From Candidatus Omnitrophota bacterium (GTDB taxonomy: Bacteria > Omnitrophota > Gorgyraeia > Duberdicusellales > 4484-171): DNA of 64,000 nucleotides. Of the stretch, positions 8,531 through 62,930 are shown one piece after another; positions within the stretch are counted from its first letter, which is position 1, and each line of letters opens with the position of its first letter. Location: assembly GCA_041652815.1 (NCBI GenBank), contig JBAZGN010000001.1, positions 33,363 to 97,362 of the forward strand. Reading direction: 5' to 3'. Position numbers and translations under genes: made by a program. Below the pieces are notes generated by a model. That model did not search any database. It saw nothing but the letters and a program-made list of their open reading frames with translations, and was not told where the DNA came from.

Positions 8531-8670
8531 CAATAACCAAGATACAAGATACAAATAATAACCAAGTTCCAATATCCAATGATCAAACAAAACATTGCGC
8601 TCCCCTTTTGTTCATTGGGATTTGGTTATTGGTCATTGTTTGGTTATTGTATCTTGGAGCTTGGTTATTT
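8531..8670. repeat. Long imperfect palindrome built from 'aataaccaa/ttggttatt' units (family A, copy 1)
   Basis: Left arm caataaccaagatacaag...ccaatatccaatgatcaaac; right arm ...gttcattgggatttggttattggtcattgtttggttattgtatcttgg. Confidence 0.7.
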
Positions 8671-8693
8671 TTAATTCTATGGCGGGAAATAGG

Positions 8694-9761
8694 TTAAGCC
8701 ATCTCCGAGAAAATCTTTTCATCAAGAAGCCCTAACCGGTTAAATTCAGCAAAAAAGCGGGGATACATTCTCATTACTGTCCTAAATTTTCCTTTTATTC
8801 TTCCGTCCGGGGTTCTACCTTCGCGCCTAAAAATAAATAAATCCTGAAGCGCCACTTCGCCGCGTTCGACTCCACGCGCCTCAGATATATGGGTTATCCT
8901 TCTTACCCCGTCAGGGAAACGTTCTTGCTGGACTATTACATGCAAGGTATTACCTATCATTCTTCTTATTTCTTCAATCGGCAGCTTAATTCCGCTTGAT
9001 AAAATAAGGGTCTCCATACGACTGGTCACTTCCTGGGGGCTATTAGCATGGATTACGGCGAGAGTTCCGCGATGGCCGGTTGACATTGCCTGAATCATAT
9101 CGAGCGCTTCCGGGCCTCTGACTTCACCGACGATAATTCTATCCGGCCGCATACGAAGAGCATTTCTTATCAAATCACGCAAAGTAACTTCGCCTTTTCC
9201 GTCTTTATCCGGTGCGCGCGTTTCCATAGGCACAAGGTTTTCCTGATGCAAAATCAATTCCGCAGTATCTTCAATGGTTACAACCCGCTCCTGCTCAGGA
9301 ATATGATAAGAAAGCATTTCCATTGTTGTGGTTTTTCCTGAACCGGTGGCTCCTGAGAAAAGCACGTTTACTTTTCCGTGGATACAGGCAATTAGAAAAT
9401 CCGCCATTTTTTTGCTCATTGTGCCTTCCTTCATAAGGTCTTCCAGGCTATGAAGGTTTCGGTTAAATTTCCTGATGGTTATTGCTGTGCCGCGGCGGGA
9501 AAGCGGGTAAGTTATAAGATTCATACGCGAGCCATCCGGAAGGGCAACGTCGCCGAAAGGGTTATAGTAAGATATGGGCTTACCGGCTTTAGCGTAAAAT
9601 TCCTCTATGATATCGTTTATATCTTCTTCCGTAAAAGTCAGCTCAATCTTACTCTTGACGCCGCCTATTTCCAGAAAAGTATCTTTGGACCCATTTATCA
9701 TAATTTCGGTAATTTTGGGGTCCTTCAGCAATTGCCTTATTTTATCTGCGCCTAATCCCAT
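8694..9761 (-). CDS. cpaF: CpaF/TadA-family pilus assembly ATPase (short form, ATPase core only)
   Basis: Walker A GATGSGKTT, Asp/His boxes; T2SS/T4SS-E ATPase fold; 355 aa. Confidence 0.8.
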   Translation of the reverse strand: MGLGADKIRQLLKDPKITEIMINGSKDTFLEIGGVKSKIELTFTEEDINDIIEEFYAKAGKPISYYNPFGDVALPDGSRMNLITYPLSRRGTAITIRKFNRNLHSLEDLMKEGTMSKKMADFLIACIHGKVNVLFSGATGSGKTTTMEMLSYHIPEQERVVTIEDTAELILHQENLVPMETRAPDKDGKGEVTLRDLIRNALRMRPDRIIVGEVRGPEALDMIQAMSTGHRGTLAVIHANSPQEVTSRMETLILSSGIKLPIEEIRRMIGNTLHVIVQQERFPDGVRRITHISEARGVERGEVALQDLFIFRREGRTPDGRIKGKFRTVMRMYPRFFAEFNRLGLLDEKIFSEMA

Positions 9762-9857
9762 ATCTTCCTCACTTCGTTCGGCAGAAACCAGATTACAGTT
9801 TATAGAAACCAGAAAAAATCAGCTCTGGTTTCTGTACTCTGGTTTCCGGTTTCTGTC

Positions 9858-12023
9858 TTAATCTTTCGGTACAAATATTTCCCTCGATAAATCAACACCC
9901 CTGGCTCTTATTTCATCATAGAAAGTAGGTATATAGCCAAGCGGGGTGAAATAACCTATAACATTACCTTCCGCATCAACACCGGTTTGCCTATGCGTAA
10001 ATATATCCTGCAAATTGATATGCGTTTCATCAAGCATGCCGACGACTTCGGTAATCCCGGTAACCTTTCTTGAACCGTCGGACAAACGCGCAGTTTGTAC
10101 TATAACATGTATAGCTGAAGCAACTTGCTCTCGTATAGCACGAATGGGCAGCTCTATCCCCGCCATAAGAATCATACTGTCAAGCCTTATCAAAACATCA
10201 TGAGTTGAATTAGCATGGATTGTAGACATACTCCCATCGTGGCCTGTATTCATAGCCTGCAACATATCTAAAACTTCCTTTCCTCTTACTTCGCCAACGA
10301 TAATTCTATCCGGCCTCATACGCAAAGTGTTTCTGAATAAATCTCTTATTGTGATTTCTCCTTTTCCTTCTATGTTTGGGGGACGAGCTTCAAGCCGTAT
10401 CCAATGCCTCTGGTTCAATTTAAGTTCTGCCGAATCTTCAATTGTAACTATACGCTCCCGCTCTGGTATACAGGACGAAAGTATATTTAAAAATGTAGTT
10501 TTACCCGAACCGGTGCCGCCTGAAACCAGTATGTTTTTTCTCGATTTAACCGCAGCTTCCAGAAAAAGCGCCATATCCGGGGTAAGACTTGCGAAACGGT
10601 TAATCAAGTCATCCATTGTCCAGCGTTGACGGGCAAATTTTCTTATGGTAAGTGTTGGCCCCGTCAAAGATAAAGGCGAAATTATTGCATTAACACGCGA
10701 GCCGTCAGGAAGCCTGGCATCAACATAAGGAATTGATTCGTCAATGCGCCTGCCAAGCGGCGCAAGTATCCTTTCTATCACTATACGCACTTGTTCATTA
10801 CTCGTAAATTTTTTGCTGGTTAATTCAATTTTTCCAAATCTCTCTATGTATATCTGGTCTTTATTATTAACCATAATTTCCGTAACCGTTACGTCTTTAA
10901 GTAGGTCCTCAAGCGGCCCAAGGCCCAAAGCCTCTTCTACTATTTCTTTAGTTATTTTTCTCCTGATTTCCGTTGAAGCAATAAAGCCCCCTGCTTCTTT
11001 ACTGATAACGTTTGAAACAATTTTTTCTGCTTTTGCCCGTAACTCAGCCATTTTCTGGGCGCTGCCGGCATACATTTCAACCTGCACTCTTTTTAAATCA
11101 AGCTCTTCGATGAGCTTTTCATGCACTGTTTTTTTAAATTTTATTATTTGGTCTTCTTCTTCAAGGAGAGTGGTTTTCTCTGCTTTTTCCATCACGCCCA
11201 CGCGCTGCCAGAAAACTTCCTCTCCTTCAAAAGCCTCTTTAACCACTCTTACTTCACTTAAAGTTTTATGGCTTATATAAATATCTTTTCTTTCGATTAT
11301 ATCTTTGGCGAGCTTTTGTATGGCGCTTGTAAATTTACATTGCGGGTTGTCTATAATCAGAGGCACTCCACGGTTAACGGCAAGGCCGGCGGCTTTTCCC
11401 TCCGAGGGAATGAGCCCGATAATTTCCGAAGGAAGCAGTGTTTTTATTTCCTGCCAGGTTATTGCCCCTTTGCTTTCCGCGCGGTTAAGCACTATTTTTG
11501 TCATCGTCAGCGGAAAACCAAGGCTCTGGAGAGTATCCAACAACCACTGTGTTTGATAAACCGATAAAATATCCGGCGTAAGCACAAGGCTTATAAGGTT
11601 AGAACTTTCAAGGGTTGCTATGAGATTATCCGTTAAGCTTGAGCCTGCATCTATTATAATATAATCAAAATCATTCCATATAATCGATATGAAATCTTTC
11701 ATCATTTGCGGAGTAAAAGATGTACGCTGGGACATTTTGAAGATTGCCGGAAGAAATACCAGATTGCCCCTATAAATTGCGCTGTAATTATCTATGGTTC
11801 TTTTTTTCTCTTTAAAATCTTTAAGGTAATCTAAGAGGTTGAAAAGGCAGTATTTACTCTCAACTCCCAGCAGCTTTGACGTTGCCTGTGGAGCTCCTAA
11901 ATCAAAATCCAGCAAAAATACTTTTTTGTTTTGCAGGGAAAGTTGAACGGCAAGATTTAAGGAAACAAGCGTTTTTCCTACGCCGCCCTTGGTGCTAAAG
12001 AAAGAAATTACCTTCGCCTCCAT
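9858..12023 (-). CDS. Fusion protein: TadZ/CpaE-like ParA/MinD ATPase domain (N) + full CpaF/TadA secretion ATPase (C)
   Basis: N-terminus FFSTKGGVGKTLVSLNLA (deviant Walker A of MinD/ParA/CpaE); C-terminal half has GGTGSGKTT and the CpaF core; 721 aa. Confidence 0.7.
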   Translation of the reverse strand: MEAKVISFFSTKGGVGKTLVSLNLAVQLSLQNKKVFLLDFDLGAPQATSKLLGVESKYCLFNLLDYLKDFKEKKRTIDNYSAIYRGNLVFLPAIFKMSQRTSFTPQMMKDFISIIWNDFDYIIIDAGSSLTDNLIATLESSNLISLVLTPDILSVYQTQWLLDTLQSLGFPLTMTKIVLNRAESKGAITWQEIKTLLPSEIIGLIPSEGKAAGLAVNRGVPLIIDNPQCKFTSAIQKLAKDIIERKDIYISHKTLSEVRVVKEAFEGEEVFWQRVGVMEKAEKTTLLEEEDQIIKFKKTVHEKLIEELDLKRVQVEMYAGSAQKMAELRAKAEKIVSNVISKEAGGFIASTEIRRKITKEIVEEALGLGPLEDLLKDVTVTEIMVNNKDQIYIERFGKIELTSKKFTSNEQVRIVIERILAPLGRRIDESIPYVDARLPDGSRVNAIISPLSLTGPTLTIRKFARQRWTMDDLINRFASLTPDMALFLEAAVKSRKNILVSGGTGSGKTTFLNILSSCIPERERIVTIEDSAELKLNQRHWIRLEARPPNIEGKGEITIRDLFRNTLRMRPDRIIVGEVRGKEVLDMLQAMNTGHDGSMSTIHANSTHDVLIRLDSMILMAGIELPIRAIREQVASAIHVIVQTARLSDGSRKVTGITEVVGMLDETHINLQDIFTHRQTGVDAEGNVIGYFTPLGYIPTFYDEIRARGVDLSREIFVPKD

Positions 12024-14535: not shown

Positions 14536-14627
14536 TAGAAGCGGATTACCGCGGATGTTTACGCGGATTTACGCACGGTAATTTGCTTGCGTTTATCCGC
14601 GTTTAGATCCGCGGATATCCGCTTCTA
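14536..14627. repeat. 'gcggat' palindromic element, complete copy without cargo (arm1 tagaagcggattaccgcggatgtttacgcggat; arm2 atccgcgtttagatccgcggatatccgcttcta)
   Basis: Two inverted arms about 35 bp each separated by about 25 bp; the same arms recur at 20843-20885/21282-21320, 27536-27578/27975-28013 and 32673-32847. Confidence 0.75.
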
Positions 14628-15515
14628 TTTTAACAAATCTTCTGATTTTTCTACGCGCGCTTTCGCCTTAAAACTTTCGATTAATTTATTAACCTCTTGT
14701 TCGGTTTTGTCTTCCCGCAATGCGTCTTCAAGTTTTTTCTCTACGTCAGCGAAAGAAACCTCTCCACCGCCCTTTGCTTCTTCAACTTTTATTATATAAT
14801 ATTTGCCGTCATCGGCCTTGAAATAATTTGACAATCTTCCCGGCTCAACCGTAGCAATAGCTGCCCAAAATTTTGCGTTTTTTTGCAAATCTTCAAGCGA
14901 GGGAGTTAGCCAGCCGCGGTCTCCCCCCTTATCCCTGGAAGGCGCAACAGATTCCTGGCGGGCTATTTTCTCAAAATCTTCGCCCGTGAGTAACCTAACA
15001 TAAATATTCTTTGCATCAGCCTCGGAATTTACTGCTATTTCTCTAATCTTTATTTGGCGCGGTTCTTTAAAAAATTCCTTGTTTTTATCGTAAAAAGCGC
15101 GGACTTCTGCGTACGAAACGGTTACGCTTTTTTCTATATCTTTTCTAATTTTTGCCGCAAGCAGCGTGTCGCGCGTATCCCTCAATGCCCTTGCGATATC
15201 ATCACTTTTATCAATTCCTTTTTCTGTAGCTATTTGAGCCAGTATTTGGTTCTTGATAAGGTCGTTAAGAAACTTAATTTTGAAGTCTGTGCTGTTTACG
15301 TTTATGTTTTGCTGGGTAGCTATTGGCTCTATGCTTCTTAAATAATTTTTAAAATCGTCCAAGCCTATCGCCCAACTATTTACTCTGGCGAGCAGCGCGC
15401 CGTGAATAGCCACTTCTTCATTTGTTTCGGCTGGCTTCGGCGGAAAAACTTTATCACAGCCGATAAAAACTGCGATAAGAAATATAAGTGTAACAACTGG
15501 AAACGCCTTACGCAT
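14625..15515 (-). CDS. PrsA/SurA-like parvulin-type peptidyl-prolyl isomerase lipoprotein
   Basis: Lipobox-like FIGC; PpiC-type motif region IKIREIAV...ESVAPSRDKGGDRGWL. Confidence 0.6.
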   Translation of the reverse strand: MRKAFPVVTLIFLIAVFIGCDKVFPPKPAETNEEVAIHGALLARVNSWAIGLDDFKNYLRSIEPIATQQNINVNSTDFKIKFLNDLIKNQILAQIATEKGIDKSDDIARALRDTRDTLLAAKIRKDIEKSVTVSYAEVRAFYDKNKEFFKEPRQIKIREIAVNSEADAKNIYVRLLTGEDFEKIARQESVAPSRDKGGDRGWLTPSLEDLQKNAKFWAAIATVEPGRLSNYFKADDGKYYIIKVEEAKGGGEVSFADVEKKLEDALREDKTEQEVNKLIESFKAKARVEKSEDLLK

Positions 15516-15840
15516 TGAACCTCCTCTATAGTTATAAGTTTATCAATATAACCTTATTAAATCAAGATTTTTTTTAAAAATAAATCCGGCCAGGAAACTC
15601 ATCCCGTTTAGAGATTTATTCCTAACAGGATAAGCTGCATAATTTTTATCGTTGCCTTTGGGGCAAATTTAGTTTAGAATATAGCAATGAACCCAGCCCT
15701 TCCAAGGTGTTATACTTATCCAAACAGTATAGTAAATTTGTTAGGAACAAGGCTGGTTAGTTTAGGCTGCAAAAATAATTTTCAGAAATTTACCGTTTGA
15801 AATAATTCATAAAACACTACTCGAAAAAAGGAAGGGCTGG

Positions 15841-16425
15841 GTGAAAAAACCAGTAAAGATAACTCTCGATACCAGTATTTTCGTAAATCCCGATTCAAGA
15901 GTATTTTTTGGCCAAACCCCGGAGAATGCTTTGAAAAATTTTCTGGAAAAGCTGGAAAAACAAAATGATGTTTCCTGCTATATGCCTCCATCGGTTTATG
16001 AAGAACTGATGAAGTTTATGGAAAACAAACCCTCGCTCAAAGAAACGCTTCTTATCCAGAAGAAGCCGCCGGCCTCTTATGAAACGCCAATTCCTTCTAT
16101 ATTTCTGTATGAATTTATTGAAGAATTCCGGGCAAGAATAAATAAAGGCTTACGCATTGCCGAAAAATACGCAAGGCAGGAACTAAAAATAACGCCGCCG
16201 AAAGAAAAAACAGAAGAAGAAATAATAAAACGTTTAAGAGAAGAATACCGAGTGGCTCTTCGGGAAGGCATTATTGACAGTAAGGAAGATTTCGACCTTC
16301 TGCTTTTAGCTCGTGAGCTTGGCTCATTTCTAGCTACCTCAGACCAGGGCCTTGTAAAATGGGCACAAAAACTAGGCATACCCGCGCTATCCGCCGAGGA
16401 ACTAAAAGAAATTCTGGAGCATTAA
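15841..16425 (+). CDS. PIN-like protein resembling the HARP family (protein-only minimal RNase P, Aq_880-like)
   Basis: N-terminus ITLDTSIFVNP..., central YMPPSVYEEL, FLYEFIEEFRARINKGLRIAEK, C-terminal LATSDQGL; 194 aa, the size of HARP proteins. GTG start. Confidence 0.5.
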   Translation: MKKPVKITLDTSIFVNPDSRVFFGQTPENALKNFLEKLEKQNDVSCYMPPSVYEELMKFMENKPSLKETLLIQKKPPASYETPIPSIFLYEFIEEFRARINKGLRIAEKYARQELKITPPKEKTEEEIIKRLREEYRVALREGIIDSKEDFDLLLLARELGSFLATSDQGLVKWAQKLGIPALSAEELKEILEH

Positions 16426-16449
16426 ACATCGGCCTTCTTTTTTAATAAT

Positions 16450-18402
16450 ATGAAAAGCTATAAATTGACGCCTTTTTTTTCGACAACCGAAATAAATTAC
16501 GAAGAAAACCTAAACCCACAACAGTTAAAAGTCGTAAAAGAAGCTGACGGCCCTTCGCTTGTATTAGCAGGAGCAGGAAGCGGTAAAACCCGTGTGCTGA
16601 TTTACAGGCTTGCCTATTTACTCCAAAAAGGAGTTCCAGCCGAAAATATACTGCTTGTAACTTTTACAAACAAAGCTTCCAAAGAAATGATTCACCGGGC
16701 TGAAGTGCTCCTTAAATCAAGTTTATCCGGGCTTTGGGCTGGGACATTTCATCATGCCGGAAATATGATTTTAAGGCACGAGGCGCAAACTATAGGGTAC
16801 TCTGCAAACTTCACTATTATAGACAGGGAAGATTCAAAAGATTTGCTTGAGGATTGTATAGAAGAATTAGGTTATACAAAAGACGCAAAACTTTTTCCCA
16901 AAAAAGATATCATCTCAAATATTTACAGCATTTGCGTAAACTCGCTCAAGAAAGTAGAAGATGTAATTTGCGAAACCTACCCTCACATCGAGGAATATTC
17001 ATCTCATATCAAAAAAGTCCTTGCGCGGTATGAACAAAAGAAAAAACAAAGCAACACCATGGACTTTAATGATTTACTTAAATATTGGCTGGAAATTCTT
17101 AAGATAGACGCGCTTTGCAAAAAATATTCCGGAAATTTCAAATACATACTCGTTGATGAATATCAGGATACAAATCATATTCAGTTTGAAATAATCAAGC
17201 GCCTGGCATCAATCCATAAAAACATATTGGTCGTCGGAGACGACGCACAATCAATATATTCTTTTAGGGGCGCTGACATAAATAACCTTTTGGATTTTCC
17301 AAAAACTTTTGAAGGCGCAAAAATTTACAAGCTTGAAATAAATTATAGGTCTTCACCGCAAATTCTTTCATTAGCAAATAATATAATCACGCATAACATA
17401 AACCAGTTCCCCAAAGCCTTAAAGGCAGTTAAGGGCGCGGCGGAAAAACCACAAGCAGTAAAAACAAAAGATGTTTACGCGCAGGCAAAATTCGTAGCTC
17501 AGAAAGCGCTGGAACTGCACAACCAAGGCATACCGCTTCGCGAAATAGCCGTACTCTTTCGTTCGCACTTTCAGGTGTTGGAGCTGGAAATAGAACTAAT
17601 GAAAAGAAACATCCCCTATATTATGCGCGGTGGTGTGCGCTTCTTCGAACAGGCACACATAAAAGATGTTATGTCTTATCTTAAAATAATAAATAACCCC
17701 AATGATGAATTATCGTTTAAACGGGCGGTTTCGTTATATAAAGGAATAGGCAGAAGTTATGCTACAAAAATATGGAAAATGGTAGTTACCGAAAAAAAAT
17801 CCATAGATGAGGTGATAAAGGCGCTTCCCAAAAGACAGCAACAGGGCTTTCGTGAGTTTTCAAAAGTATTTGAAAAAATCAGGACTATTGAAAAACCCCA
17901 AAATGCCGTAAGAGAAATTTTATCTTTCTATAAAGACTACTGCTATCTTTCATTCGATAATCCCGACGACAGAATCCTTGACCTGGAAGAACTTGCAAAA
18001 ATGGCAGCGGATTATCCTACCGTAAGAAGGTTTCTTACTGAATTAAGTTCATTTGAAGAATTTAAAGGCGAGTCAATGCTGTCGGCAAACGAAAAAAGAG
18101 AATTCCTTACGCTTTCAACAATACATCAGGCAAAAGGCCTTGAGTGGGAAGCTGTATTTATCGTAGGCTTTAGCGATTATGAATTCCCCCATCCTAAAGC
18201 GCTGGGAAAAGACGAAGCCCTTGAAGAAGAAAGAAGGCTCTTTTACGTTGCAACCACAAGGGCTAAACAAGTGCTTTACATAACCTATCCGGAAGCAAAA
18301 TATACTTTTAAAAACGGGGTTATAATCTGCCGGCCGTCGATGTTCCTTAATGAAATACCCTTCTCGAATTACGAAGAGATGTATGTTGAGGATGATTTTT
18401 GA
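16450..18402 (+). CDS. UvrD/PcrA/Rep-family SF1 DNA helicase
   Basis: Motifs AGAGSGKT, TFTNKASKEM, VDEYQDTN, VGDDAQSIYSFRGA, TIHQAKGLEW, VATTRAKQVLY. Confidence 0.8.
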   Translation: MKSYKLTPFFSTTEINYEENLNPQQLKVVKEADGPSLVLAGAGSGKTRVLIYRLAYLLQKGVPAENILLVTFTNKASKEMIHRAEVLLKSSLSGLWAGTFHHAGNMILRHEAQTIGYSANFTIIDREDSKDLLEDCIEELGYTKDAKLFPKKDIISNIYSICVNSLKKVEDVICETYPHIEEYSSHIKKVLARYEQKKKQSNTMDFNDLLKYWLEILKIDALCKKYSGNFKYILVDEYQDTNHIQFEIIKRLASIHKNILVVGDDAQSIYSFRGADINNLLDFPKTFEGAKIYKLEINYRSSPQILSLANNIITHNINQFPKALKAVKGAAEKPQAVKTKDVYAQAKFVAQKALELHNQGIPLREIAVLFRSHFQVLELEIELMKRNIPYIMRGGVRFFEQAHIKDVMSYLKIINNPNDELSFKRAVSLYKGIGRSYATKIWKMVVTEKKSIDEVIKALPKRQQQGFREFSKVFEKIRTIEKPQNAVREILSFYKDYCYLSFDNPDDRILDLEELAKMAADYPTVRRFLTELSSFEEFKGESMLSANEKREFLTLSTIHQAKGLEWEAVFIVGFSDYEFPHPKALGKDEALEEERRLFYVATTRAKQVLYITYPEAKYTFKNGVIICRPSMFLNEIPFSNYEEMYVEDDF

Positions 18403-18878
18403 GAAGAAGAATCCAGGCTAAAAATATCCAGAATAACATCCGTATTGTTTGAATCTTCAAAAACCAATTCCATTTCAATATCAACAATATCTTCTTTGGC
18501 TGCGTCAATTCGGCCTTTATTTATAATAGGTAACAACGAAAATGCGGCAATTATGACTAAAGTAACAACGGCAATCTGCGGCCTGTAGGCTAAGGCAGAT
18601 ATCATGCCTTGTACGATAAAAACTATTCTTTCCATCAGGCTAGAAATAACCGATACTGGCTGAGTTTGCGTTTCTATTTGTTTTAAAATATCATTTAAGC
18701 TATCGCGCGAAATATCCACTTTTTCTTTTTCTGCAATACAAAGGAATTTATTTAAGCTTTCATAATTTTTGCTGCAGCGGCTGCAATGCAAAAAATGTTC
18801 TTCGATAGGCTTTCTTTCTTCTCCCTTTATTTCGTTATAGAAAAACAATAGCATTTGTTTCTTTGAAAGGCATTTCAT
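18369..18878 (-). CDS. Zinc-dependent (ZAS-type) anti-sigma factor with one TM helix
   Basis: HFLHCSRCSKNY contains HxxxCxxC; TM segment VTLVIIAAFSLLPI. Start taken at MKCLSKK (GGAGG RBS); directly downstream of the ECF sigma gene. Confidence 0.55.
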   Translation of the reverse strand: MKCLSKKQMLLFFYNEIKGEERKPIEEHFLHCSRCSKNYESLNKFLCIAEKEKVDISRDSLNDILKQIETQTQPVSVISSLMERIVFIVQGMISALAYRPQIAVVTLVIIAAFSLLPIINKGRIDAAKEDIVDIEMELVFEDSNNTDVILDIFSLDSSSQKSSSTYISS

Positions 18879-18945
18879 GATATAACCTCCATTAATGAGC
18901 ACATCATTTTTTCAAGTGTATCAACACGTAGAAAAAATGATAGTG

Positions 18946-19064
18946 CGAATTAACCCCCCACCACTTTTAGTGATGAGTAGTTTTTGTAAAACATTTCTTT
19001 TCTCTAAAACCAACCGCGTCTTACAACAAGATGCTTTCTAAAAGTGGTGGGGGGGTCGAATTCG
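18946..19064. repeat. Inverted repeat with 24-27 bp arms (cgaattaaccccccaccacttttag / ctaaaagtggtgggggggtcgaattcg) and a 67-bp spacer, between the sigma and anti-sigma genes
   Basis: Read directly from sequence; a duplicate copy sits at 25639-25757. Confidence 0.7.
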
Positions 19065-19107
19065 GCTACGCAAATTTTCTGCGCTTCTGGCTTGAAAATT
19101 TGCTGCC

Positions 19108-19659
19108 TCATTCGACCTCCATCTTTTTCTGCAAGGCGCCTACGGCTCGTTTTAAATGTGTCTTTACTGCGCTCTGAGAGCAGCCTATCGCGTTACTTAT
19201 CTCTGCCATGCTTAGCCCCTCATAGTGCCTTAATATAAATACATTTTTTTGCCTGGCCGGCAAATTTGAAATTTCTTTTCTTAATAATGCCTGCCTGTCT
19301 TTAAGGTCTAACTCTTCTTTCAAAGAAGCATTTTCAATTTTTGGCTCGCTTTTATATCTTGTGCCAAGATTAAATATACTGCGGCGCCGGCGTAAAAAAT
19401 CCAACGAAGTATTTATGCTTATCCGATAAATCCAGGTAGAAAGCTTTGAAGCATTTTTAAAATATTTAAGGCCGTTATGTATTTTTAAAAGCGAAACCTG
19501 CAAGGCGTCTTTTGCATCTTCCATATTTGCCAAATAACGGTAAGAAATATTTAGAATATCCGAATATATAAGCTTTGCCAGTTCAGAAAAGGCACTACTC
19601 TCACCGCCTATAAAACTATCCGCCAGCTTTTTTATATCTTCCTCTTTATGTTTAAGCAC
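19108..19659 (-). CDS. ECF (sigma-70 family group IV) RNA polymerase sigma factor
   Basis: Region 2 and region 4 features; C-terminal HTH LSMAEISNAIGCSQSAVKTHLKRA. Confidence 0.75.
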   Translation of the reverse strand: MLKHKEEDIKKLADSFIGGESSAFSELAKLIYSDILNISYRYLANMEDAKDALQVSLLKIHNGLKYFKNASKLSTWIYRISINTSLDFLRRRRSIFNLGTRYKSEPKIENASLKEELDLKDRQALLRKEISNLPARQKNVFILRHYEGLSMAEISNAIGCSQSAVKTHLKRAVGALQKKMEVE

Positions 19660-19667
19660 GTTTTATT

Positions 19668-20150
19668 TTATAAATTGTTTTCCATTGAACGATTCTTTCT
19701 GCGGTCTTGAATTCTATTTTTAAGCTCTTCATATTTCTGCGGGTCGTTTTCTTTAAGATAATTAAGCCGCTCTTTAAGATGCTCTCTTCTTTTGGCTTTT
19801 AACTCTTCATATTTTTGGGGATTGTTTTTCTTAAGTTCCGCAAGGCGGCTTCTTATCTTCGTTCTTGCCTCCTGTATCAGAGCTTTAAACTTTTCCGGGT
19901 CATTTTTTTCCAGAGCTTCAAGCTCTTGTTTTTTTGCAACAAGCTTTTCTTTTAAAATAGCTTTAAACTTTTCTTTATCGGTTTTTCTAAGCTCAATAAG
20001 CTCTTTTTTCTCGCTTTCCGGAAGCGCTTCAAAAACCAAAACTCTGGCTATTGCTTTTTCCCGGAAAGTATTTTTAGCATAAACGCTGTTTCCAAGAATA
20101 AAGATAACCATAAACAGAACCAGACAGATTCCAAAATATCTGATTTTCAT
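19668..20150 (-). CDS. Secreted coiled-coil repeat protein (periplasmic stress-protein-like)
   Basis: Signal peptide, then charged repeats (ENDPQKYEELK, KNDPEKFKALI, KNNPQKYEELK); immediately upstream of the ECF sigma gene in the same operon. Confidence 0.4.
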   Translation of the reverse strand: MKIRYFGICLVLFMVIFILGNSVYAKNTFREKAIARVLVFEALPESEKKELIELRKTDKEKFKAILKEKLVAKKQELEALEKNDPEKFKALIQEARTKIRSRLAELKKNNPQKYEELKAKRREHLKERLNYLKENDPQKYEELKNRIQDRRKNRSMENNL

Positions 20151-20199
20151 ACTATCACCTCGAATATTTAGACGGTTTAAAAGCGTAAAAAGTCTACCC

Positions 20200-20270
20200 C
20201 GTTACAGATAACAGAGTACAGAATACAGAATAATTTTTTATTTCTTCTCTGTTCTCTGTATCTATCGCGA
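20200..20270. repeat. Palindrome of 'acagagtacagaataca / tctctgttctctgtatct' units at the folE 3' end; duplicate copy at 26893-26963
   Basis: Read directly from sequence. Confidence 0.6.
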
Positions 20271-20822
20271 AGTAGAAATTAAGCTTAAAGCTTCCTGGCG
20301 GGTCTTTTGGTTTGTAAGAAAGATTCCCCTGACAACGGAAGTTGTAGTTAATGTCCCCGGTTTCTTCACCCCGCGCATTGACATGCAAAGATGCTCCGCT
20401 TCAATAACTACCATTACGCCTTTTGGTTTTAGTTTTTTCATAATTACATCGGCTACTTCTGTAGTTAAACGTTCCTGCACCTGAAGGCGCTTTGAAAGGA
20501 CATCCACAACCCTTGCTATTTTGCTTAAACCGGTTATGCGCTTATCGGGAATATAGGCAACGTGCGCTTTTCCTATAAAGGGAAGCATGTGGTGCTCGCA
20601 CATCGAATATAACGGTATTCCCTTCAAAAGTATAATTTCATCGTGCTTTTGCTCAAGGATAACTTCCAACTCTTCTTCTGCGTCCTTGAACTGCCCGCTT
20701 AAAATTTCTCCATACATTTCAGCTACCCGCGCAGGCGTTATCGCGATATCTTTCTTTGTTAAATCTGCGCCGAGTGCTTCCAAAATAAGCTTAACGCCTT
20801 GTTCGATTTTTTTCTTATCCAT
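20262..20822 (-). CDS. folE: GTP cyclohydrolase I
   Basis: CEHHMLPFIGKAHVAYIP, GLSKIARVV, RLQVQERLT, AEHLCMSMRGVKK; start taken at MDKKKIEQ (AGGAG RBS). The longer ORF extends into the palindromic element. Confidence 0.85.
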   Translation of the reverse strand: MDKKKIEQGVKLILEALGADLTKKDIAITPARVAEMYGEILSGQFKDAEEELEVILEQKHDEIILLKGIPLYSMCEHHMLPFIGKAHVAYIPDKRITGLSKIARVVDVLSKRLQVQERLTTEVADVIMKKLKPKGVMVVIEAEHLCMSMRGVKKPGTLTTTSVVRGIFLTNQKTRQEALSLISTSR

Positions 20823-20865
20823 CTTTTTGTACTCCTGTTTTATAGAAGCGGATTTCCGCGGATAT

Positions 20866-21273
20866 TTACGCGGATAGACACACGGCATTTAAACGCGCAA
20901 AGTCATAAACCCGTCTTACTATTTCAAGTTTTTTTGTACCAAAGTTTATTAAAAATCCTAACTTATAGTTAGAACCCCTTAGATAATACCAGAATTGTTT
21001 TTTATCTTCTTGAAGTAACATTGGTTTAACTTTAATCTCCATAATTATTTTATCATTTATTACAAAATCAGGAACATAGCTACCGACTTTTTCTCCTTTA
21101 TATAGAATATTAATTTGCTTTTGTTGTTCTACAGATAAATTTCTTTCCTTGAATTCTTTGACTAATGCTTTCTGAATTATTCCCTCCTTAAAAGCACTTC
21201 CGAAATGATTCCATACCTCAAAACATGCTCCTCTTATTTGATAAGATTCTTCTTCGTATAATAATTTACCCAT
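20866..21273 (-). CDS. GxxExxY-family small protein (PD-(D/E)XK-like fold family), nested between inverted arms of the gcggat element
   Basis: Conserved layout IRGACFEVWNHFGSAFKEG...YKGEKVGSYVPDFVINDKIIMEIKVKP...LGFLINFG typical of the GxxExxY family; flanked by arm1 (20843-20885) and arm2 (21282-21320). Confidence 0.6.
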   Translation of the reverse strand: MGKLLYEEESYQIRGACFEVWNHFGSAFKEGIIQKALVKEFKERNLSVEQQKQINILYKGEKVGSYVPDFVINDKIIMEIKVKPMLLQEDKKQFWYYLRGSNYKLGFLINFGTKKLEIVRRVYDFARLNAVCLSA

Positions 21274-21317
21274 ATTTCTGTGCGTTCATCCGCGTTTAGA
21301 TCCGCGGGAATCCGCTT

Positions 21318-22208
21318 CTATTTTAACAAATCTTCTGATTTTTCTACGCGCGCTTTCGCCTTAAAACTTTCGATTAATTTATTAACCTCTTGTTCGGTTT
21401 TGTCTTCCCGCAATGCGTCTTCAAGTTTTTTCTCTACGTCAGCGAAAGAAACCTCTCCACCGCCCTTTGCTTCTTCAACTTTTATTATATAATATTTGCC
21501 GTCATCGGCCTTGAAATAATTTGACAATCTTCCCGGCTCAACCGTAGCAATAGCTGCCCAAAATTTTGCGTTTTTTTGCAAATCTTCAAGCGAGGGAGTT
21601 AGCCAGCCGCGGTCTCCCCCCTTATCCCTGGAAGGCGCAACAGATTCCTGGCGGGCTATTTTCTCAAAATCTTCGCCCGTGAGTAACCTAACATAAATAT
21701 TCTTTGCATCAGCCTCGGAATTTACTGCTATTTCTCTAATCTTTATTTGGCGCGGTTCTTTAAAAAATTCCTTGTTTTTATCGTAAAAAGCGCGGACTTC
21801 TGCGTACGAAACGGTTACGCTTTTTTCTATATCTTTTCTAATTTTTGCCGCAAGCAGCGTGTCGCGCGTATCCCTCAATGCCCTTGCGATATCATCACTT
21901 TTATCAATTCCTTTTTCTGTAGCTATTTGAGCCAGTATTTGGTTCTTGATAAGGTCGTTAAGAAACTTAATTTTGAAGTCTGTGCTGTTTACGTTTATGT
22001 TTTGCTGGGTAGCTATTGGCTCTATGCTTCTTAAATAATTTTTAAAATCGTCCAAGCCTATCGCCCAACTATTTACTCTGGCGAGCAGCGCGCCGTGAAT
22101 AGCCACTTCTTCATTTGTTTCGGCTGGCTTCGGCGGAAAAACTTTATCACAGCCGATAAAAACTGCGATAAGAAATATAAGTGTAACAACTGGAAACGCC
22201 TTACGCAT
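21318..22208 (-). CDS. PrsA/SurA-like PPIase (duplicate copy)
   Basis: Identical translation to 14625..15515. Confidence 0.6.
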   Translation of the reverse strand: MRKAFPVVTLIFLIAVFIGCDKVFPPKPAETNEEVAIHGALLARVNSWAIGLDDFKNYLRSIEPIATQQNINVNSTDFKIKFLNDLIKNQILAQIATEKGIDKSDDIARALRDTRDTLLAAKIRKDIEKSVTVSYAEVRAFYDKNKEFFKEPRQIKIREIAVNSEADAKNIYVRLLTGEDFEKIARQESVAPSRDKGGDRGWLTPSLEDLQKNAKFWAAIATVEPGRLSNYFKADDGKYYIIKVEEAKGGGEVSFADVEKKLEDALREDKTEQEVNKLIESFKAKARVEKSEDLLK

Positions 22209-22533
22209 TGAACCTCCTCTATAGTTATAAGTTTATCAATATAACCTTATTAAATCAAGATTTTTTTTAAAAATAAATCCGGCCAGGAAACTCATCCCGT
22301 TTAGAGATTTATTCCTAACAGGATAAGCTGCATAATTTTTATCGTTGCCTTTGGGGCAAATTTAGTTTAGAATATAGCAATGAACCCAGCCCTTCCAAGG
22401 TGTTATACTTATCCAAACAGTATAGTAAATTTGTTAGGAACAAGGCTGGTTAGTTTAGGCTGCAAAAATAATTTTCAGAAATTTACCGTTTGAAATAATT
22501 CATAAAACACTACTCGAAAAAAGGAAGGGCTGG

Positions 22534-23118: not shown

Positions 23119-23142
23119 ACATCGGCCTTCTTTTTTAATAAT

Positions 23143-25571: not shown

Positions 25572-25800
25572 GATATAACCTCCATTAATGAGCACATCAT
25601 TTTTTCAAGTGTATCAACACGTAGAAAAAATGATAGTGCGAATTAACCCCCCACCACTTTTAGTGATGAGTAGTTTTTGTAAAACATTTCTTTTCTCTAA
25701 AACCAACCGCGTCTTACAACAAGATGCTTTCTAAAAGTGGTGGGGGGGTCGAATTCGGCTACGCAAATTTTCTGCGCTTCTGGCTTGAAAATTTGCTGCC

Positions 25801-26352: not shown

Positions 26353-26360
26353 GTTTTATT

Positions 26361-26843: not shown

Positions 26844-26954
26844 ACTATCACCTCGAATATTTAGACGGTTTAAAAGCGTAAAAAGTCTACCCCGTTACAG
26901 ATAACAGAGTACAGAATACAGAATAATTTTTTATTTCTTCTCTGTTCTCTGTAT

Positions 26955-44097: not shown

Positions 44098-44191
44098 ACC
44101 AACGCTAATTATCGCTAATCTAACGCGAATGGTCGCGAATAGTTCTATTGTATTTTTTCATTCGCGTTTAAAATAAAATACTATGTATTCG

Positions 44192-50386: not shown

Positions 50387-50728
50387 GAATAACCACGTCC
50401 CGCTCCTTAATATTTTTATTTAGCGGCCTGCCTGTCGGCAAGGCAGGGATCCCGCCAAAGGCGGGAAATCATAAACGAATTATCACGAATAAATAATAAA
50501 TTCGTGTATATTCGTATGAAATCTATGATTATTAGTGTCTATTATAAGATATAATGTATTACAGAAAAATCAAGCGGAAATTTAAAAAAATTGGCTTTAT
50601 CCCGTTAGAAAAACCATCCCCATTAGCAAATTTATCTCTAATATGACCCACGCAGCATATGAGATTCTGTGTTCGTAAAATTTGGAATATACTCTTGCTG
50701 CAAATCGTAGGATGTTTTCTAACGGGAT

Positions 50729-51202: not shown

Positions 51203-51257
51203 AATTATTACGGAAGCCAGAGGTCAGATTTTTCTGTCATCTGCCATCTGCTATCTG

Positions 51258-52172: not shown

Positions 52173-52245
52173 AAATATTTAGTATTACGTTGCACGTAAC
52201 AAGCAACACGTTTTAAAAACCGTGCTACGTGGGACATGTTACGTT

Positions 52246-52458: not shown

Positions 52459-52465
52459 CTTTTTT

Positions 52466-52600
52466 AAAATAACCAATGACCAAGATACAAATTCCAAACA
52501 ATATTCAAATTATAATAACCAAACATATTTTTCCTGTTTGAATATTGAAATTTGGTTATTGGTCATTGTTTGGTTATTGGAAATTGGAACTTGGTTATTT
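52466..52600. repeat. Family A palindrome (aataaccaa/ttggttatt units), copy 3
   Basis: aaaataaccaatgaccaagatacaaattccaaacaatattc ... gaatattgaaatttggttattggtcattgtttggttattggaaattggaacttggttatttt. Confidence 0.7.
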
Positions 52601-52825
52601 TACTAAAAGTTCTTCTATCCTTGCTTTATCAAAACCTACGATGATTTGTCCGTTTATAACTATCGTGGGGACGCCCATTTGCCCTGAAAGCTTTACCATT
52701 TCTTCCATAGCCTGGTGGTTGGCTGAAATGTCAAAATCCTCGTAGCTTAAGCCTTTGGAAGAAAAATATTGCTTCGCGAGCTTGCAGTAAGGGCATGTTG
52801 GAGTTGAATAAATTTTTATATCCAT
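52595..52825 (-). CDS. Glutaredoxin-family small redox protein
   Basis: CPYC active site (YSTPTCPYCKLAK), thioredoxin fold; 76 aa. Confidence 0.65.
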   Translation of the reverse strand: MDIKIYSTPTCPYCKLAKQYFSSKGLSYEDFDISANHQAMEEMVKLSGQMGVPTIVINGQIIVGFDKARIEELLVK

Positions 52826-52854: not shown

Positions 52855-52990
52855 CTATCGTAAATCGTCAATCGGTTACGCGGCTCGTTTCGTCATACGT
52901 TAATCGGTTGCGTCTTACTGACGTTAAACGCCTAACGCAACCGTGACAAGCTCGTCCGCCTCCGGCGGGCAGGCAACCGCAACCGCTTAA
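52855..52990. repeat. Family D element, near-duplicate of 38484-38592
   Basis: cgtcaatcggttacgcggctcgtttcgtcatacg...aacgcaaccgtgacaagct...aaccgcaaccg. Confidence 0.65.
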
Positions 52991-53017
52991 CGCAACCTCT
53001 ATCCGTGATCATCTGTG

Positions 53018-53500: not shown

Positions 53501-53643
53501 AGATACTCCTCCTTAATTTTTCCGACGAATGTCGGGAAAATTAACCCCGAAGCGCTTCGTGTAAATTTTCTCGGCCTCCGGCCAGGAAAATTTACACGAT
53601 ATACAGGCGCAAGGGGTATAATTTCAAACTTTCATAGAGCACA

Positions 53644-54864: not shown

Positions 54865-55002
54865 TAATTTTGTATCATGTCACACGTAGCACGTATCACG
54901 TCTTTAAAACCTGTTACGTCCACTCCAAGTGGACTCGCCTAAATATTTTTATATGGTGGCGAGGTTACCCGTGACGTGATACTTTAACTGGTGCGATTGA
55001 TT

Positions 55003-55164
55003 TCACGTTACTACTTCAAATTGGCTCTTATCCGCCCCGCAAACCGGGCATAACCAGGTATCTGGAAGTTTTTCGAAAGCTATCCCTGGTTCGATGCCTC
55101 CGTCTGGGTCTCCTATTTCCGGGTCATAAATATAACCGCAAACTATACATTTGTACTTTGCCAT
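55003..55164 (-). CDS. Rubredoxin (53 aa, below ORF-track cutoff)
   Basis: Manual translation: [53 protein letters not shown]. Two CxxCG knuckles; GGAGG RBS. Confidence 0.7.
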
Positions 55165-55194
55165 TTTACACCTCCTGCTTACACAGATTAGTGC

Positions 55195-55380
55195 AGATTT
55201 GGAAACGAATAATCACAAATGTTTAAATCACAATACACAATGAACAAATCACAAACAATATACAATACCGAATACCAAAATCACAAACAAATCTACCGTT
55301 TTGGTCATTGTGATTTTGGTATTGTGATTTGTTTGTAATTTGTGTATTGTAATTTGTGATTTTTAAGAACACCCGTGCCT
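55195..55380. repeat. Palindrome of 'atcacaaa/tttgtgat' units
   Basis: aatcacaaatgtttaaatcacaatacacaatgaacaaatcacaaac ... ggtcattgtgattttggtattgtgatttgtttgtaatttgtgtattgtaatttgtgatt. Confidence 0.7.
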
Positions 55381-55442
55381 ATCCGTGCGTAAAAATTCTA
55401 TCACATATTTTACCAATGTGAAGCCATTAATGAGTATAATTT

Positions 55443-62209: not shown

Positions 62210-62214
62210 ATCAA

Positions 62215-62823
62215 TTACCTCCCCTTTGGTTTGGATAAAAGTTTCCAGGGATTATTTTTTAAATCAGCAGTTAACTCTTCAACATTTTGGGATGTAGATT
62301 CGAGATTCTTGATGATAGAAGAAACTTTATCCTGATTACTGGTAACAGTGTAATTAAGGCTTGCTGAAAGTTTCTTAGCTTCTCCGGTTAAAGCTTCTGT
62401 CTCTTCCATAAGCGCATCTAAATCCATATATGGCTTACCTGTAACAGTGCTTTCAGGTTTCATGAAGCTGCCGCCGTGGGACGCAATCTGTATATATTTT
62501 TCACCCATAAGCCCTAAAGTTTTTATGGAGATAACCGCACCCTCCCTTACCTTTGCCTGAACCGGAAGCCAGAGTTTTAAGGTAATTTTTGTATTATCGC
62601 TATCGTAGCTTACAATAATATCGTCAACTTTTCCAACCTCCAGGCCGTTTAACATAACCGGCGCTTTTTTAGTTAACCCGGCAATTTCATCGAATGTAGC
62701 GTACAAAAAATAACCGGGTTTTTTTATATCAACCTTGCCGGTCCTGAAAGTAATAAAAATAAGTACGCCGATTGAGGCTAACACGAACAATCCCACTTTA
62801 AATTCGTTACCATATTTTTTCAT
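62215..62823 (-). CDS. mlaD: MCE-domain protein MlaD
   Basis: N-terminal TM anchor plus MCE domain. Confidence 0.7.
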   Translation of the reverse strand: MKKYGNEFKVGLFVLASIGVLIFITFRTGKVDIKKPGYFLYATFDEIAGLTKKAPVMLNGLEVGKVDDIIVSYDSDNTKITLKLWLPVQAKVREGAVISIKTLGLMGEKYIQIASHGGSFMKPESTVTGKPYMDLDALMEETEALTGEAKKLSASLNYTVTSNQDKVSSIIKNLESTSQNVEELTADLKNNPWKLLSKPKGR

Positions 62824-62840
62824 GTTACACTCCTTTCATT

Positions 62841-62930
62841 ACACAGATTAGCACAGATGGCACATCACAGATTACCGCAGATAAATTTATCTGTGCACAT
62901 CTGTGATTTATTATCTGTGGTCATCTGTGT
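62841..62930. repeat. Family C palindrome (cacagat/atctgtg units)
   Basis: cacagattagcacagatggcacatcacagattaccgcagataaa / tttatctgtgcacatctgtgatttattatctgtggtcatctgtg. Confidence 0.7.

Follow-up and report, generated by a model that had tools for sequence, protein, structure and literature searches.

What fills the gaps between the housekeeping genes of an uncultured bacterium with long hairpins built from short repeated motifs? The question is raised by a 64,000-nucleotide stretch of DNA (hereafter, the window) from a Candidatus Omnitrophota bacterium (GenBank assembly GCA_041652815.1, contig JBAZGN010000001.1, positions 33,363 to 97,362), a housekeeping and envelope region with a G+C content of 35-42%, in which nearly all of the genes lie on the minus strand. 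They include a Tad/type IV pilus cluster and the genes of PurH, elongation factor G (EF-G), SMC, TrmE, the electron transfer flavoprotein (ETF), phosphoenolpyruvate carboxykinase, rubrerythrin, a flavodiiron protein and Mla. An earlier reading of the letters alone (the sequence-only reading) had described families of imperfect palindromes in these gaps, and had proposed that they act as terminators or insulators and reflect an active repeat-generating or mobile process. Our analysis indicates that the hairpins are probably proliferating foldback-type insertion elements, which exist in gene-less and gene-bearing forms.

Architecture of the intergenic hairpins

The hairpins listed by the sequence-only reading are all present, at the positions that it gave or a few bases away. 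They are intergenic imperfect palindromes of 60-240 bp, and their arms consist of quasi-tandem units, mostly with a 7-nt period and in some cases with a period of 9-12 nt. An inverted-repeat search of the window returned 46 pairs, and the long ones correspond to the listed hairpins and to several more that had been overlooked (9780-9857, 14536-14627, 20831-21322, 32673-32847, 43192-43299, 50475-50515, 52182-52245 and 54872-54978). The hairpins are indeed located in intergenic gaps, but the earlier wording that almost every gap contains one was too strong, as they occupy about 20 of the 33 unique gaps of at least 30 nt (about 60%). Within positions 1-8500 of the window no unit-built hairpin was found, and their range is 8.5-63 kb. 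Nor are the dispersed families all independent, since the CACAGAT hairpins, the GCGGAT hairpins and the partial copies have a common C(A/G)GAT core.

Folding was scored as energy z-scores against shuffled sequences, with a controlled scan in 120-nt windows. The whole-gap folds of 14 gaps reached z-scores of -5 to -10.6, and z-scores of -4 or lower were obtained in 12 of 88 mostly intergenic windows, as compared with none of 202 coding windows. The number of nested pairs in the minimum free energy structure was dropped as a detector, because shuffled A+T-rich gaps equally often contain at least 22 pairs. Of the 20 hairpins tested, 12 had their best autocorrelation at lag 7 or 14 in one or both arms, while the GTTACG hairpin has a lag of 9 and the GCGGAT hairpins have lags of 10-12; most of these periodicities were significant relative to shuffles, and Tandem Repeats Finder returned the same units. 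The units are degenerate (45-80% lag identity), and their motifs occur in intergenic DNA at 2-10 times the density seen in coding DNA. The hairpins mostly lie between co-directional genes, often beginning 0-4 nt past a stop codon and ending 11-19 nt before the next start codon. Several strong hairpins (53501-53643 and 18903-19107) belong to repeat types that are not unit-built. At the Rfam gathering threshold no hairpin in the window was matched, the sole match being a cyclic di-GMP (c-di-GMP-I) riboswitch; scans for tRNA and tmRNA genes found none in the window, which likewise lacks an rRNA gene.

In the GCGGAT element at 14536-14627, the terminal TAG is the stop codon of the gene at 14625-15515. 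TAG occurs at 3 of 11 hairpin-adjacent stops and at 6 of 52 stops overall, which is suggestive only of element-borne stop codons as a general pattern.

Empty and filled gaps in related genomes

We compared orthologous gaps across 60 loci from genomes and metagenomes, designated below by locus numbers such as L002. The gene order of the PurH region is conserved across the order. The window PurH protein has an exact match on contig JALOCC010000009.1 of GCA_023227945.1, and all 32 relatives in the species-representative genomes are Omnitrophota metagenome-assembled genomes, some of which were deposited as 'uncultured Planctomycetia bacterium'. The closest relatives differ from the window genome by 13-17% in the nucleotide sequences of three conserved genes.

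Presence or absence in relatives was a check set beforehand, and in genomes with a PurH identity of 90-96% the orthologous gaps proved to be either empty (0-20 nt) or occupied by a different family. In 12 syntenic gaps, the window genome is filled in nine, while the closest relatives are filled in one to six. The empty gaps hold only the stop codon, the ribosome-binding site and the start codon. More distant relatives also have empty gaps, and therefore the empty state is ancestral. Conserved terminators would be expected to show the same hairpins at orthologous sites, altered by compensatory changes only; the pattern observed is the opposite, and it bears out the mobile or proliferating process proposed by the sequence-only reading. 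The hairpins are insertions rather than conserved terminators.

A single gap may be hit independently by different families in different lineages. In the gap between the EF-G and YchF genes, the members of one clade (the window, L002 and L036) carry a GTTACG hairpin, L004 has an ATCACAA hairpin and L006 one built of TCCAA, whereas L003, L034, L035 and L037 have none. The gap between the TrmE and GCH1 genes is empty in L034 and L037, and in L004 it has no more than a non-unit hairpin of 68 nt. It is occupied by CACAGAT-type hairpins in L002, L035, L036 and L059, by C(A/G)GAT arms around a nested TCCAA hairpin in L006, and by the gene-bearing element described below in the window and L005; depending on the lineage, the gap thus contains the GxxExxY element, CACAGAT, AGATTA or CCAAA. 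The empty site of L034 and L037 reads ...GGG AAA TAA ACAAGGAG...ATG, and the filled site of L005 reads ...GGG AAG (TAGAAGC...GCTTCTA) TAAACAAGGAG...ATG, with the element in parentheses. The L005 element thus follows the last sense codon and precedes the old stop codon, and supplies its own TAG. In the gap between the PurH and FolC genes, L002 has an orthologous family A copy with the same outer ends as in the window and a different interior, and the gap is empty in L004, L034, L035 and L037. The gap orthologous to 32673-32847 measures 14-17 nt in L003, L004 and L035.

Termini, units and change after insertion

Copies at separate sites resemble each other over long collinear stretches. The family A right arms at 8614-8671 and 52544-52601 are 89.7% identical, the elements at 43192-43299 and 54872-54978 are 87% identical in inverted orientation, and the ATCACAA hairpin from 55225 is nearly identical over about 34 nt to the EF-G/YchF hairpin of L004, which is another locus. 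The ends are family-specific terminal inverted repeats: family A copies have the common ends AAATAACCAAG...CTTGGTTATTT, and the pair TAGAAGCGGAT...ATCCGCTTCTA is present in eight copies. Families with conserved termini (A, ATCACAA and GCGGAT) also turn up at non-orthologous sites in other genomes. The elements are nested in places, as an ATCACAA hairpin lies inside C(A/G)GAT arms in the window, a like arrangement occurs in L006, and an extra hairpin is located at the centre of 32673-32847.

The termini and the units are conserved and the spacers between the units vary freely, so that the stems are imperfect. Among eight GCGGAT-type copies, the complementarity of the two arms within a copy was 0.77, as compared with similarities of 0.76-0.79 between copies, and neither concerted evolution nor an excess of within-copy complementarity was seen. 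The units in the C(A/G)GAT arms are spaced 10-14 bp apart, or about one helical turn. Given that units and termini, rather than base pairs, are conserved, the pattern fits arrays of recognition motifs and not stems under base-pair selection, and the arm motifs are putative protein recognition sites.

The differences between orthologous copies involve whole units. Each arm of the GTTACG hairpin has five units in the window and four in L002, where one 9-nt unit is gone from each arm; the order is rearranged in L036. In another comparison, L059 is two right-arm units short of L036. The arrays are therefore subject to slippage after insertion. The GTTACG hairpin is the single case of symmetric unit loss, which is not enough to claim copying from arm to arm. 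In L070, an Omnitrophota metagenome-assembled genome, a GxxExxY element at 740-870 has its left arm (TAGAAGCAGA...) three times in tandem, at 740, 789 and 838, and its right arm once, indicating that whole arms, and not only units, can be duplicated.

The family A hairpin at 8524-8676 is abutted by a gene for a 474-aa protein (7097-8521, minus strand). The protein has a sub-threshold N-terminal match to HTH_Tnp_Tc3_2 (30.1 bits, with a cut-off of 31.5), and no catalytic domain was recognised in it.

A gene-bearing element encodes a GxxExxY nuclease

One copy in the window carries a gene. The gene (20866-21273, minus strand) encodes a 135-aa protein of the GxxExxY family (TIGR04256, 111 bits; Pfam PDDEXK_3), and is bracketed by inverted repeats at 20842-20883 and 21280-21321 that are 83% identical over 42 nt and contain three GCGGAT units with 10-12 bp spacing. 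The repeats read TAGAAGCGGATTCCCGCGGATCTAAACGCGGAT... and ...ATCCGCGTAAATATCCGCGGAAATCCGCTTCTA, and the whole element measures about 490 bp. Its ends and units are shared by the gene-less elements at 14536-14627 and 32673-32847. Family C (the CACAGAT hairpins) can be grouped with the GCGGAT hairpins and the partial copies in a single C(A/G)GAT superfamily, which is tied to the GxxExxY gene.

The same arrangement of arms around the gene recurs in other Omnitrophota, following a pilin-like gene, an HD-domain gene and miaA. At six GxxExxY loci, the homology has sharp limits, TAGAAGC at its start and GCTTCTA at its end, beyond which the flanks are unrelated. The arm ends at a fixed position a few bases before the GxxExxY start codon, and the arms and the gene make up one collinear unit. 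The termini of the arms diverge with the protein: TAGAAGC accompanies proteins with 69-100% identity, while other termini are found at 57-65% and 33% identity. The homologues with 57-65% identity, one of them from Patescibacteria, lie between inverted GCGGAT, GCAGAT or ACAGAT arrays, and an L049 paralogue with 33% identity lies inside GATTACACAGAT arms. Altogether, inverted arrays of the C(A/G)GAT type bracket the GxxExxY gene at all nine independent metagenomic sites examined.

On plasmids of cultured bacteria, inverted repeats of the CAC(A/G)GA type occur at three of six GxxExxY genes (Bacteroides, Bernardetia and Treponema). The Bacteroides finegoldii gene lies between TTCACCACAGAGGACGCAGAGGACACGGAGG and its complement, immediately after the radA stop codon; the Bernardetia gene has inverted ACACAGAGA units, and that of Treponema has ACACGGATTCG/CGAATCCGTGT. 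In Gemmatirosa, a complete GCGGAT hairpin adjoins a GxxExxY gene. When about 600 kb of fetched loci were scanned, without regard to annotation, for small open reading frames (ORFs) with inverted 6-mer flanks, the GxxExxY genes and those of PF05635, described below, ranked at the top. In a scan for long-range inverted repeats, the match around an Hsp20 gene in L026 proved to be a CIRCE-like operator pair, which is unrelated to these elements.

The PD...ExK motif of the GxxExxY protein is intact, and its residues D69, E79 and K81 are invariant in 40 homologues. The structural model (predicted local distance difference test score, 90.6) matches only PD-(D/E)XK nucleases, and these weakly: Cas4, lambda exonuclease, RecE and Hjc. 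Nothing on the function of GxxExxY turned up in the searchable literature.

Two further observations concern this element. The close homologues of the window protein are mostly found on contigs of 0.6-3 kb, which is consistent with the element breaking short-read metagenome assemblies. In addition, the window contains a 6.7-kb tandem duplication (14581-21324 and 21274-28017), which takes in the segment from a rotamase gene to the GxxExxY gene inclusive. Each boundary lies within a GCGGAT arm (14588-14627, 21282-21322 and 27975-28015), the left one being the element at 14536-14627. The three mismatches and two gaps in the alignment match those of the boundary arms, over about 50 nt, so that the interior of the duplication appears to be identical in the two copies. 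A 51-kb contig of GCA_023227945.1 has a single copy of the segment. The duplication is either a very recent unequal exchange between the arms of about 50 bp or a repeat-induced misassembly, and in both cases the elements were probably the cause.

A second embedded gene and the rRNA intervening sequences

No hairpin copy in the window has an S23p (PF05635, 23S_rRNA_IVP) ORF, its gene-bearing copy having GxxExxY instead. In relatives, PF05635 genes lie between inverted GGACGT arrays, directly after a TAG stop codon (L069, 1572-2000), between inverted family A-like heptamers (L012, 12225-12572; AATCCGA...TAACCAA and TTTTGGAATTTG...) and among CCCTTAT heptamers (L064, 1667-2221). At the last locus (1365-2470), arrays based on CCCTTAT occur within about 300 nt on both sides of the gene, in direct orientation, and a repeat of the gene's first 30 nt occurs downstream, indicating a tandem duplication of the array and the gene start.

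The PF05635 protein was first found inside the intervening sequences (IVSs) of 23S rRNA. In Coxiella, the IVS has a terminal stem of 28 bp, and AGAAGA with three GACAGAT heptamers after it, the number of heptamers being variable among strains; it carries an S23p ORF, it is excised by RNase III, and its origin is unexplained (PMC4990558). When the Omnitrophota PF05635 protein was compared with plasmids by tblastn, 22 of the 23 matches were cyanobacterial (13 from Nostoc), with identities of up to 61%. The close cyanobacterial four-helix-bundle genes (50-61% identical) all lie between G-rich heptamer arrays in the four cases examined, and in three of these the tandem arrays are inverted (Nostoc punctiforme, Nostoc sp. 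MS1 and Leptolyngbya). The sole non-cyanobacterial match, from Azospirillum lipoferum, is a genuine 23S rRNA IVS, with arms (TCAGAGGACGGATGACAGAGGACGGAGGACAGAA and TCCGTCCTCTGTCTTCTGTCATCCGTCTTCTGA) composed of GAC(A/G)GA(G/T) heptamers and with the ends TCAGAGGAC...GTCTTCTGA.

Origin of the hairpins

The insertion polymorphism, the termini kept at non-orthologous sites, the unit of arms and gene, which occurs in several phyla, and the conservation of motifs instead of base pairs make the foldback-element explanation the likely one. According to this model, each copy would consist of two inverted terminal repeats placed back to back, each of them a row of 3-8 short motifs (6-7 nt core, 7-12 bp period) preceded by a terminus specific to the family, and the palindrome would arise as the two repeats abut with nothing or little between them. 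The elements would enter intergenic DNA, typically between the last or stop codon and the ribosome-binding site of the next gene, or alternatively at the centre of an older hairpin. They would have multiplied strongly in this lineage, and then changed by the gain and loss of whole units. Longer versions would carry a small gene between the arms, namely the GxxExxY PD-(D/E)XK nuclease gene in the C(A/G)GAT families and the 23S_rRNA_IVP four-helix-bundle gene in heptamer families of relatives; accordingly, the gene-less hairpins would relate to these as MITEs (miniature transposable elements with inverted repeats) relate to their parents, and as REPINs, the repeats built from repetitive extragenic palindromic (REP) sequences, relate to the genes of the REP-associated tyrosine transposases (RAYTs). 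We infer that the GxxExxY nuclease takes part in the mobility. It may cut at or near the arms or at an extruded cruciform, or it may home into gene-less copies with the arms as homology. The distribution at the TrmE/GCH1 gap is in keeping with homing: the window and the distant L005 both have the gene-bearing element at this site, where closer relatives carry gene-less CAGAT hairpins.

Several points weigh against this explanation. To our knowledge, a hydrolytic nuclease of 135 aa cannot carry out strand transfer alone, and no recognised transposase (DDE or HUH/Y1) was found among the window proteins. Arms of the C(A/G)GAT type flank GxxExxY here and S23p in Coxiella and Azospirillum, and thus the genes may be passengers. 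A target-site duplication was not established, either from the flanks of the six GxxExxY elements or from the comparison of empty and filled sites, where the direct repeat amounts at most to a possible TA hidden in the palindromic end. All of the comparisons span species that are 13-30% divergent, rather than strains, and so no insertion event was observed directly. No gene-bearing copy was found in this genome for families A, D, GTTACG, ATCACAA and GATACT, and the interior of 32673-32847 shows no significant gene remnant (local alignment score of 19, as compared with a shuffle mean of 20.3). Among the wider homologues, the GxxExxY genes of Fusobacteria and Persicobacter have direct rather than inverted repeats, the Oscillatoria PF05635 gene also has direct arrays, and the Pseudanabaena homologue (36% identity) is without clear arrays. 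The link between the heptamer families and PF05635 consists of three loci in relatives.

The hairpins could also be pre-existing neutral or host elements, with GxxExxY and 23S_rRNA_IVP as independent selfish genes that target the hairpin centres, in the manner of free-standing homing endonuclease genes. The genes would then be uninformative as to the spread of the hairpins. One arm type does carry unrelated genes, other hairpins also insert at hairpin centres, and the distribution at the TrmE/GCH1 gap is as expected for homing. Yet the arms and the gene are inherited as one collinear unit, the arm termini diverge together with the protein, and the spread of the gene-less copies is left unexplained. 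We regard such independence as unlikely, and note that it is compatible with the foldback-element explanation for the hairpins themselves.

It is improbable that the hairpins evolved in place under host selection as RNA structures, with a role as terminators, insulators, 3'-end stabilisers or RNase III sites. Their placement in mostly co-directional gaps, close to the stop codon and upstream of the next start, would suit such a role, as would their very high stability (z-scores down to -10.6), the retention of the GTTACG hairpin across a clade with about 13-15% nucleotide divergence, and the cleavage by RNase III of ribosomal IVSs that are built alike (PMC4990558). On the other hand, the orthologous gaps of close relatives are empty or contain unrelated families, and complementarity within copies is not in excess. 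The terminator or insulator role proposed by the sequence-only reading found no support: terminator-like patterns between 28 and 47 kb numbered 21, as compared with a shuffle mean of 20.4, none of them on a unit-built hairpin, and the hairpins are followed not by a T-run but by a ribosome-binding site. Hairpins also lie inside likely operons, between the MlaD and ABC ATPase genes and between the ETF subunit genes. A further one, the CACAGAT hairpin at 35699-35860, separates the ribosome-binding site of fusA from the promoter of this gene (35947-35919, minus strand) and takes the place of about 50 nt of the ancestral leader. The promoter, TTGACT-17-TATAAT, is the best hit in the region and is conserved in five genomes. 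A strong terminator in this leader would silence the gene, which weighs against a terminator role for the hairpin.

Both strands of the hairpins fold about equally well. Selection on the sense RNA, sought through G-U strand asymmetry, was accordingly dropped as a candidate; the antisense strand folds slightly better in seven of eight cases, probably due to a compositional skew. A depletion of hairpins from divergent gaps was also dropped, as 13 of 43 divergent and 57 of 224 tandem gaps carry hairpins under a loose criterion applied to all loci. The two divergent promoter gaps of the window are free of unit-built hairpins, and in relatives several hairpins between divergent genes are clearly unit-built, which again counts against selection as RNA. 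By analogy with the IVSs, it is plausible that the stems, once transcribed, are substrates of RNase III, which would then cut operon transcripts between cistrons instead of terminating them.

Growth of each hairpin in place from a seed, by slippage and intrastrand template switching and with a heptamer mutational bias to account for the shared units, is very improbable: unit numbers do vary between orthologous copies (once symmetrically, five in the window and four in L002) as heptamer numbers do between Coxiella strains (PMC4990558), the 7-nt period is dominant, and the over-representation of heptamers in many bacteria has been ascribed to polymerase slippage (PMC4692102), but copies at unrelated loci and in different genomes are collinear in their termini and unit order (8614-8671 and 52544-52601; 43192-43299 and 54872-54978; 55225 and L004), six GxxExxY elements have the same sharp ends, and hairpins appear fully formed in ancestral 15-nt gaps that contain no seed. 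After insertion, slippage clearly does act, as the variation in orthologous unit numbers indicates.

Relation to known repeats

The foldback elements of the window resemble several known systems. Like the 23S rRNA IVSs of Salmonella, Leptospira, Coxiella and alphaproteobacteria, they are inserted long stems bordered by inverted repeats, with or without a small ORF (S23p, PF05635, in the IVSs) in the loop, and in both cases the distribution is sporadic and the origin unexplained. The heptamers of the Coxiella (GACAGAT) and Azospirillum (GAC(A/G)GA(G/T)) IVSs match the core of the CACAGAT and GCGGAT families, and the ends of the Azospirillum IVS resemble the TAGAAGC termini. However, the window elements lie between protein-coding genes, and not in rRNA helix 9, 25 or 45. 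They belong to many families and reach a density of about one per 3 kb, and their gene-bearing copy encodes a PD-(D/E)XK nuclease instead of S23p.

The short tandemly repeated repetitive (STRR) sequences of filamentous cyanobacteria are intergenic heptamer repeats that form hairpins and have no known function (PMC2670836), and Xanthomonas has 70-75 convergent GGGAATC pairs, also without a known function (PMC4692102). Both share with the window elements their intergenic tandem heptamers, often in convergent pairs capable of forming a stem-loop, their location within operons and their variation in length among close relatives (PMC2670836; PMC4692102). Unlike the window units, which are degenerate, A+T-rich and of many kinds and occur in another phylum, theirs are usually a near-perfect single G-rich heptamer. 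Neither of these reports links the repeats to embedded genes or to mobility (PMC2670836; PMC4692102).

As with MITEs and the REPIN-RAYT system, short non-autonomous intergenic palindromes occur beside a gene-bearing version flanked by inverted repeats; REPINs flank RAYT genes (PMC3116915). Family-specific terminal inverted repeats are a further likeness to MITEs, although the version with the same ends encodes a PD-(D/E)XK GxxExxY protein and not a known transposase. REP sequences are defined as G+C-rich palindromes of 20-40 bp that carry a GTAG or CGTC tag and form doublets (PMC3733652), whereas the window arms are arrays of 30-75 nt made up of A+T-rich units without such tags. No Y1_Tnp match, as expected for a RAYT, was found among the window proteins. 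The foldback (FB) transposons of Drosophila and other eukaryotes have long inverted repeats composed of short tandem subrepeats in variable number, around a centre that is absent or carries genes. They differ in being eukaryotic, kilobase-sized and dependent on another transposase family, so that the likeness is one of architecture only.

We found no report in the literature that links Omnitrophota to repeats of this type, or the GxxExxY family to such hairpins. The kind of element is thus known but unexplained (IVS, STRR), and what the window presents is a very dense variant, in a new phylum and within protein-coding operons. Three oddities without an accepted origin or function are touched by these results, namely the hairpins that fragment 23S rRNA (1990), the cyanobacterial heptamers (1990) and the paired arrays of Xanthomonas (2015), together with two very common and uncharacterised families of small proteins, GxxExxY and the '23S rRNA IVS protein'. 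The window joins a high density of elements, empty and filled sites, and gene-bearing beside gene-less copies of one family, and the puzzle thereby becomes testable: the GxxExxY protein can be assayed for binding or cutting of C(A/G)GAT arrays or cruciforms, and operon transcripts can be assayed for RNase III cuts at the stems.

We suggest, tentatively, that the Omnitrophota hairpins, the 23S IVSs, the STRR-type hairpins and perhaps those of Xanthomonas, with the GxxExxY (PF13366) and S23p (PF05635) genes, which are multi-copy orphans, may constitute one widespread and hitherto unrecognised class of mobile foldback elements in prokaryotes, in which the arms would be arrays of recognition motifs and the embedded proteins would drive the spread by a mechanism other than those of the DDE, HUH, serine and tyrosine enzymes. 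The driver could be a minimal PD-(D/E)XK nuclease or a four-helix-bundle nucleic-acid binder, acting for example through cruciform- or hairpin-directed cleavage and repair-mediated copying.

Feature list and other features of the window

Positions of the individual hairpins, and of three further genes or RNA elements, are compiled in Table 1.

Table 1. Unit-built hairpins and additional features of the window
Feature	Position	Strand	Remarks
c-di-GMP-I riboswitch	6702-6809	minus	42.9 bits; gathering threshold 35
Family A hairpin	8524-8676		z -6.9; lag 7, p<0.004; heptamer units with conserved CAA/TTG core; termini AAATAA(T)CAATAACCAAG ... CTTGGTTATTT
GAAACCAGA/TCTGGTTTC hairpin	9780-9857		z -10; begins right after the stop codon of the upstream gene (9858)
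GCGGAT element, gene-less	14536-14627		z -7.7; termini TAGAAGCGGAT...ATCCGCTTCTA
PIN_5 / 'RNA ligase partner' protein gene	15841-16425	plus	TIGR03875, 192.6 bits; second copy 22534-23118
ACAGA(A/G) heptamer hairpin	20203-20261		duplicate copy 26896-26954
Gene-bearing GxxExxY element	20831-21322	minus	second copy 27524-28015
GATACT heptamer hairpin	29532-29598		z -4.8; directly past the FolC-like stop codon
Family A hairpin	30995-31142		z -7.7; between PurH and FolC-like genes
GCGGAT element	32673-32847		z -10.6; TAGAAGCGGAT termini; 81-nt interior with a further small hairpin
GTTACG hairpin	33557-33668		9-nt period; five units per arm
CACAGAT hairpin	35699-35860		fusA leader
Family D (GGTTACG / CGTGAC) hairpin	38483-38592		z -5.9
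Composite ACGTG-unit element	43192-43299		two nested small hairpins; between ETF subunit genes
CGCGAAT hairpin	44101-44175		weakest of the set; whole-gap z -1.1
ACGAAT-unit hairpin	50475-50515		342-nt gap that also holds GC-rich hairpins; gap z -10.6
Short CAGAT array	51221-51257		three units and one inverted; directly past a stop codon
Partial ACGTG composite copy	52182-52245
Family A hairpin	52460-52607		terminal AAATAACCAAG gives the TAA stop of the glutaredoxin gene
Family D hairpin	52855-52990		92% identity over 39 nt to 38494-38532
CACAGAT partial arm	about 53003-53017
Inverted ACGTG composite copy	54872-54978
Rubredoxin gene	55003-55164	minus	53 aa; two CxxC motifs; under the ORF length cut-off
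Nested composite	55176-55415		outer C(A/G)GAT arms 55176-55197 and about 55390-55415; inner ATCACAA heptamer hairpin 55205-55386
CACAGAT hairpin	62841-62930		z -7.8; between MlaD and ABC ATPase genes; units 10-14-10 bp apart in each arm

Two of the repeats that are not unit-built differ in form. Near-perfect, G+C-containing hairpins at 53513-53544 and 53557-53599, inside a longer stem at 53544-53617, reach z-scores of -9 to -11; this group (53501-53643) is located 3' of the flavodiiron protein gene and 5' of the rubrerythrin gene. The other is a dispersed composite repeat, found in the window at 18946-19064 (and 25639-25757), in L007 at about 1150-1360, in L012 and L022, and in L002 at about 7730-7860. 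It consists of a long-range stem, ACCCCC(C)AC(A)CCA...TGGTGTGGGGGT, followed by TTAATTCGCAC, a small A/T hairpin and, just before a ribosome-binding site, GTGCTCATTAA. It occurs in several unrelated gaps of related genomes.

The c-di-GMP-I riboswitch is located upstream of a cluster of small genes without annotation and of the Tad-like pilus genes at 172-6903. The PIN_5 gene adjoins that of a UvrD-type helicase, with which it forms the sole plus-strand block of the region. The rubredoxin gene, which sits between the inverted ACGTG element and the nested hairpin complex, is part of an oxidative-stress run that also includes the genes of the flavodiiron protein, rubrerythrin, glutaredoxin, a thioredoxin reductase-like protein and peroxiredoxin.

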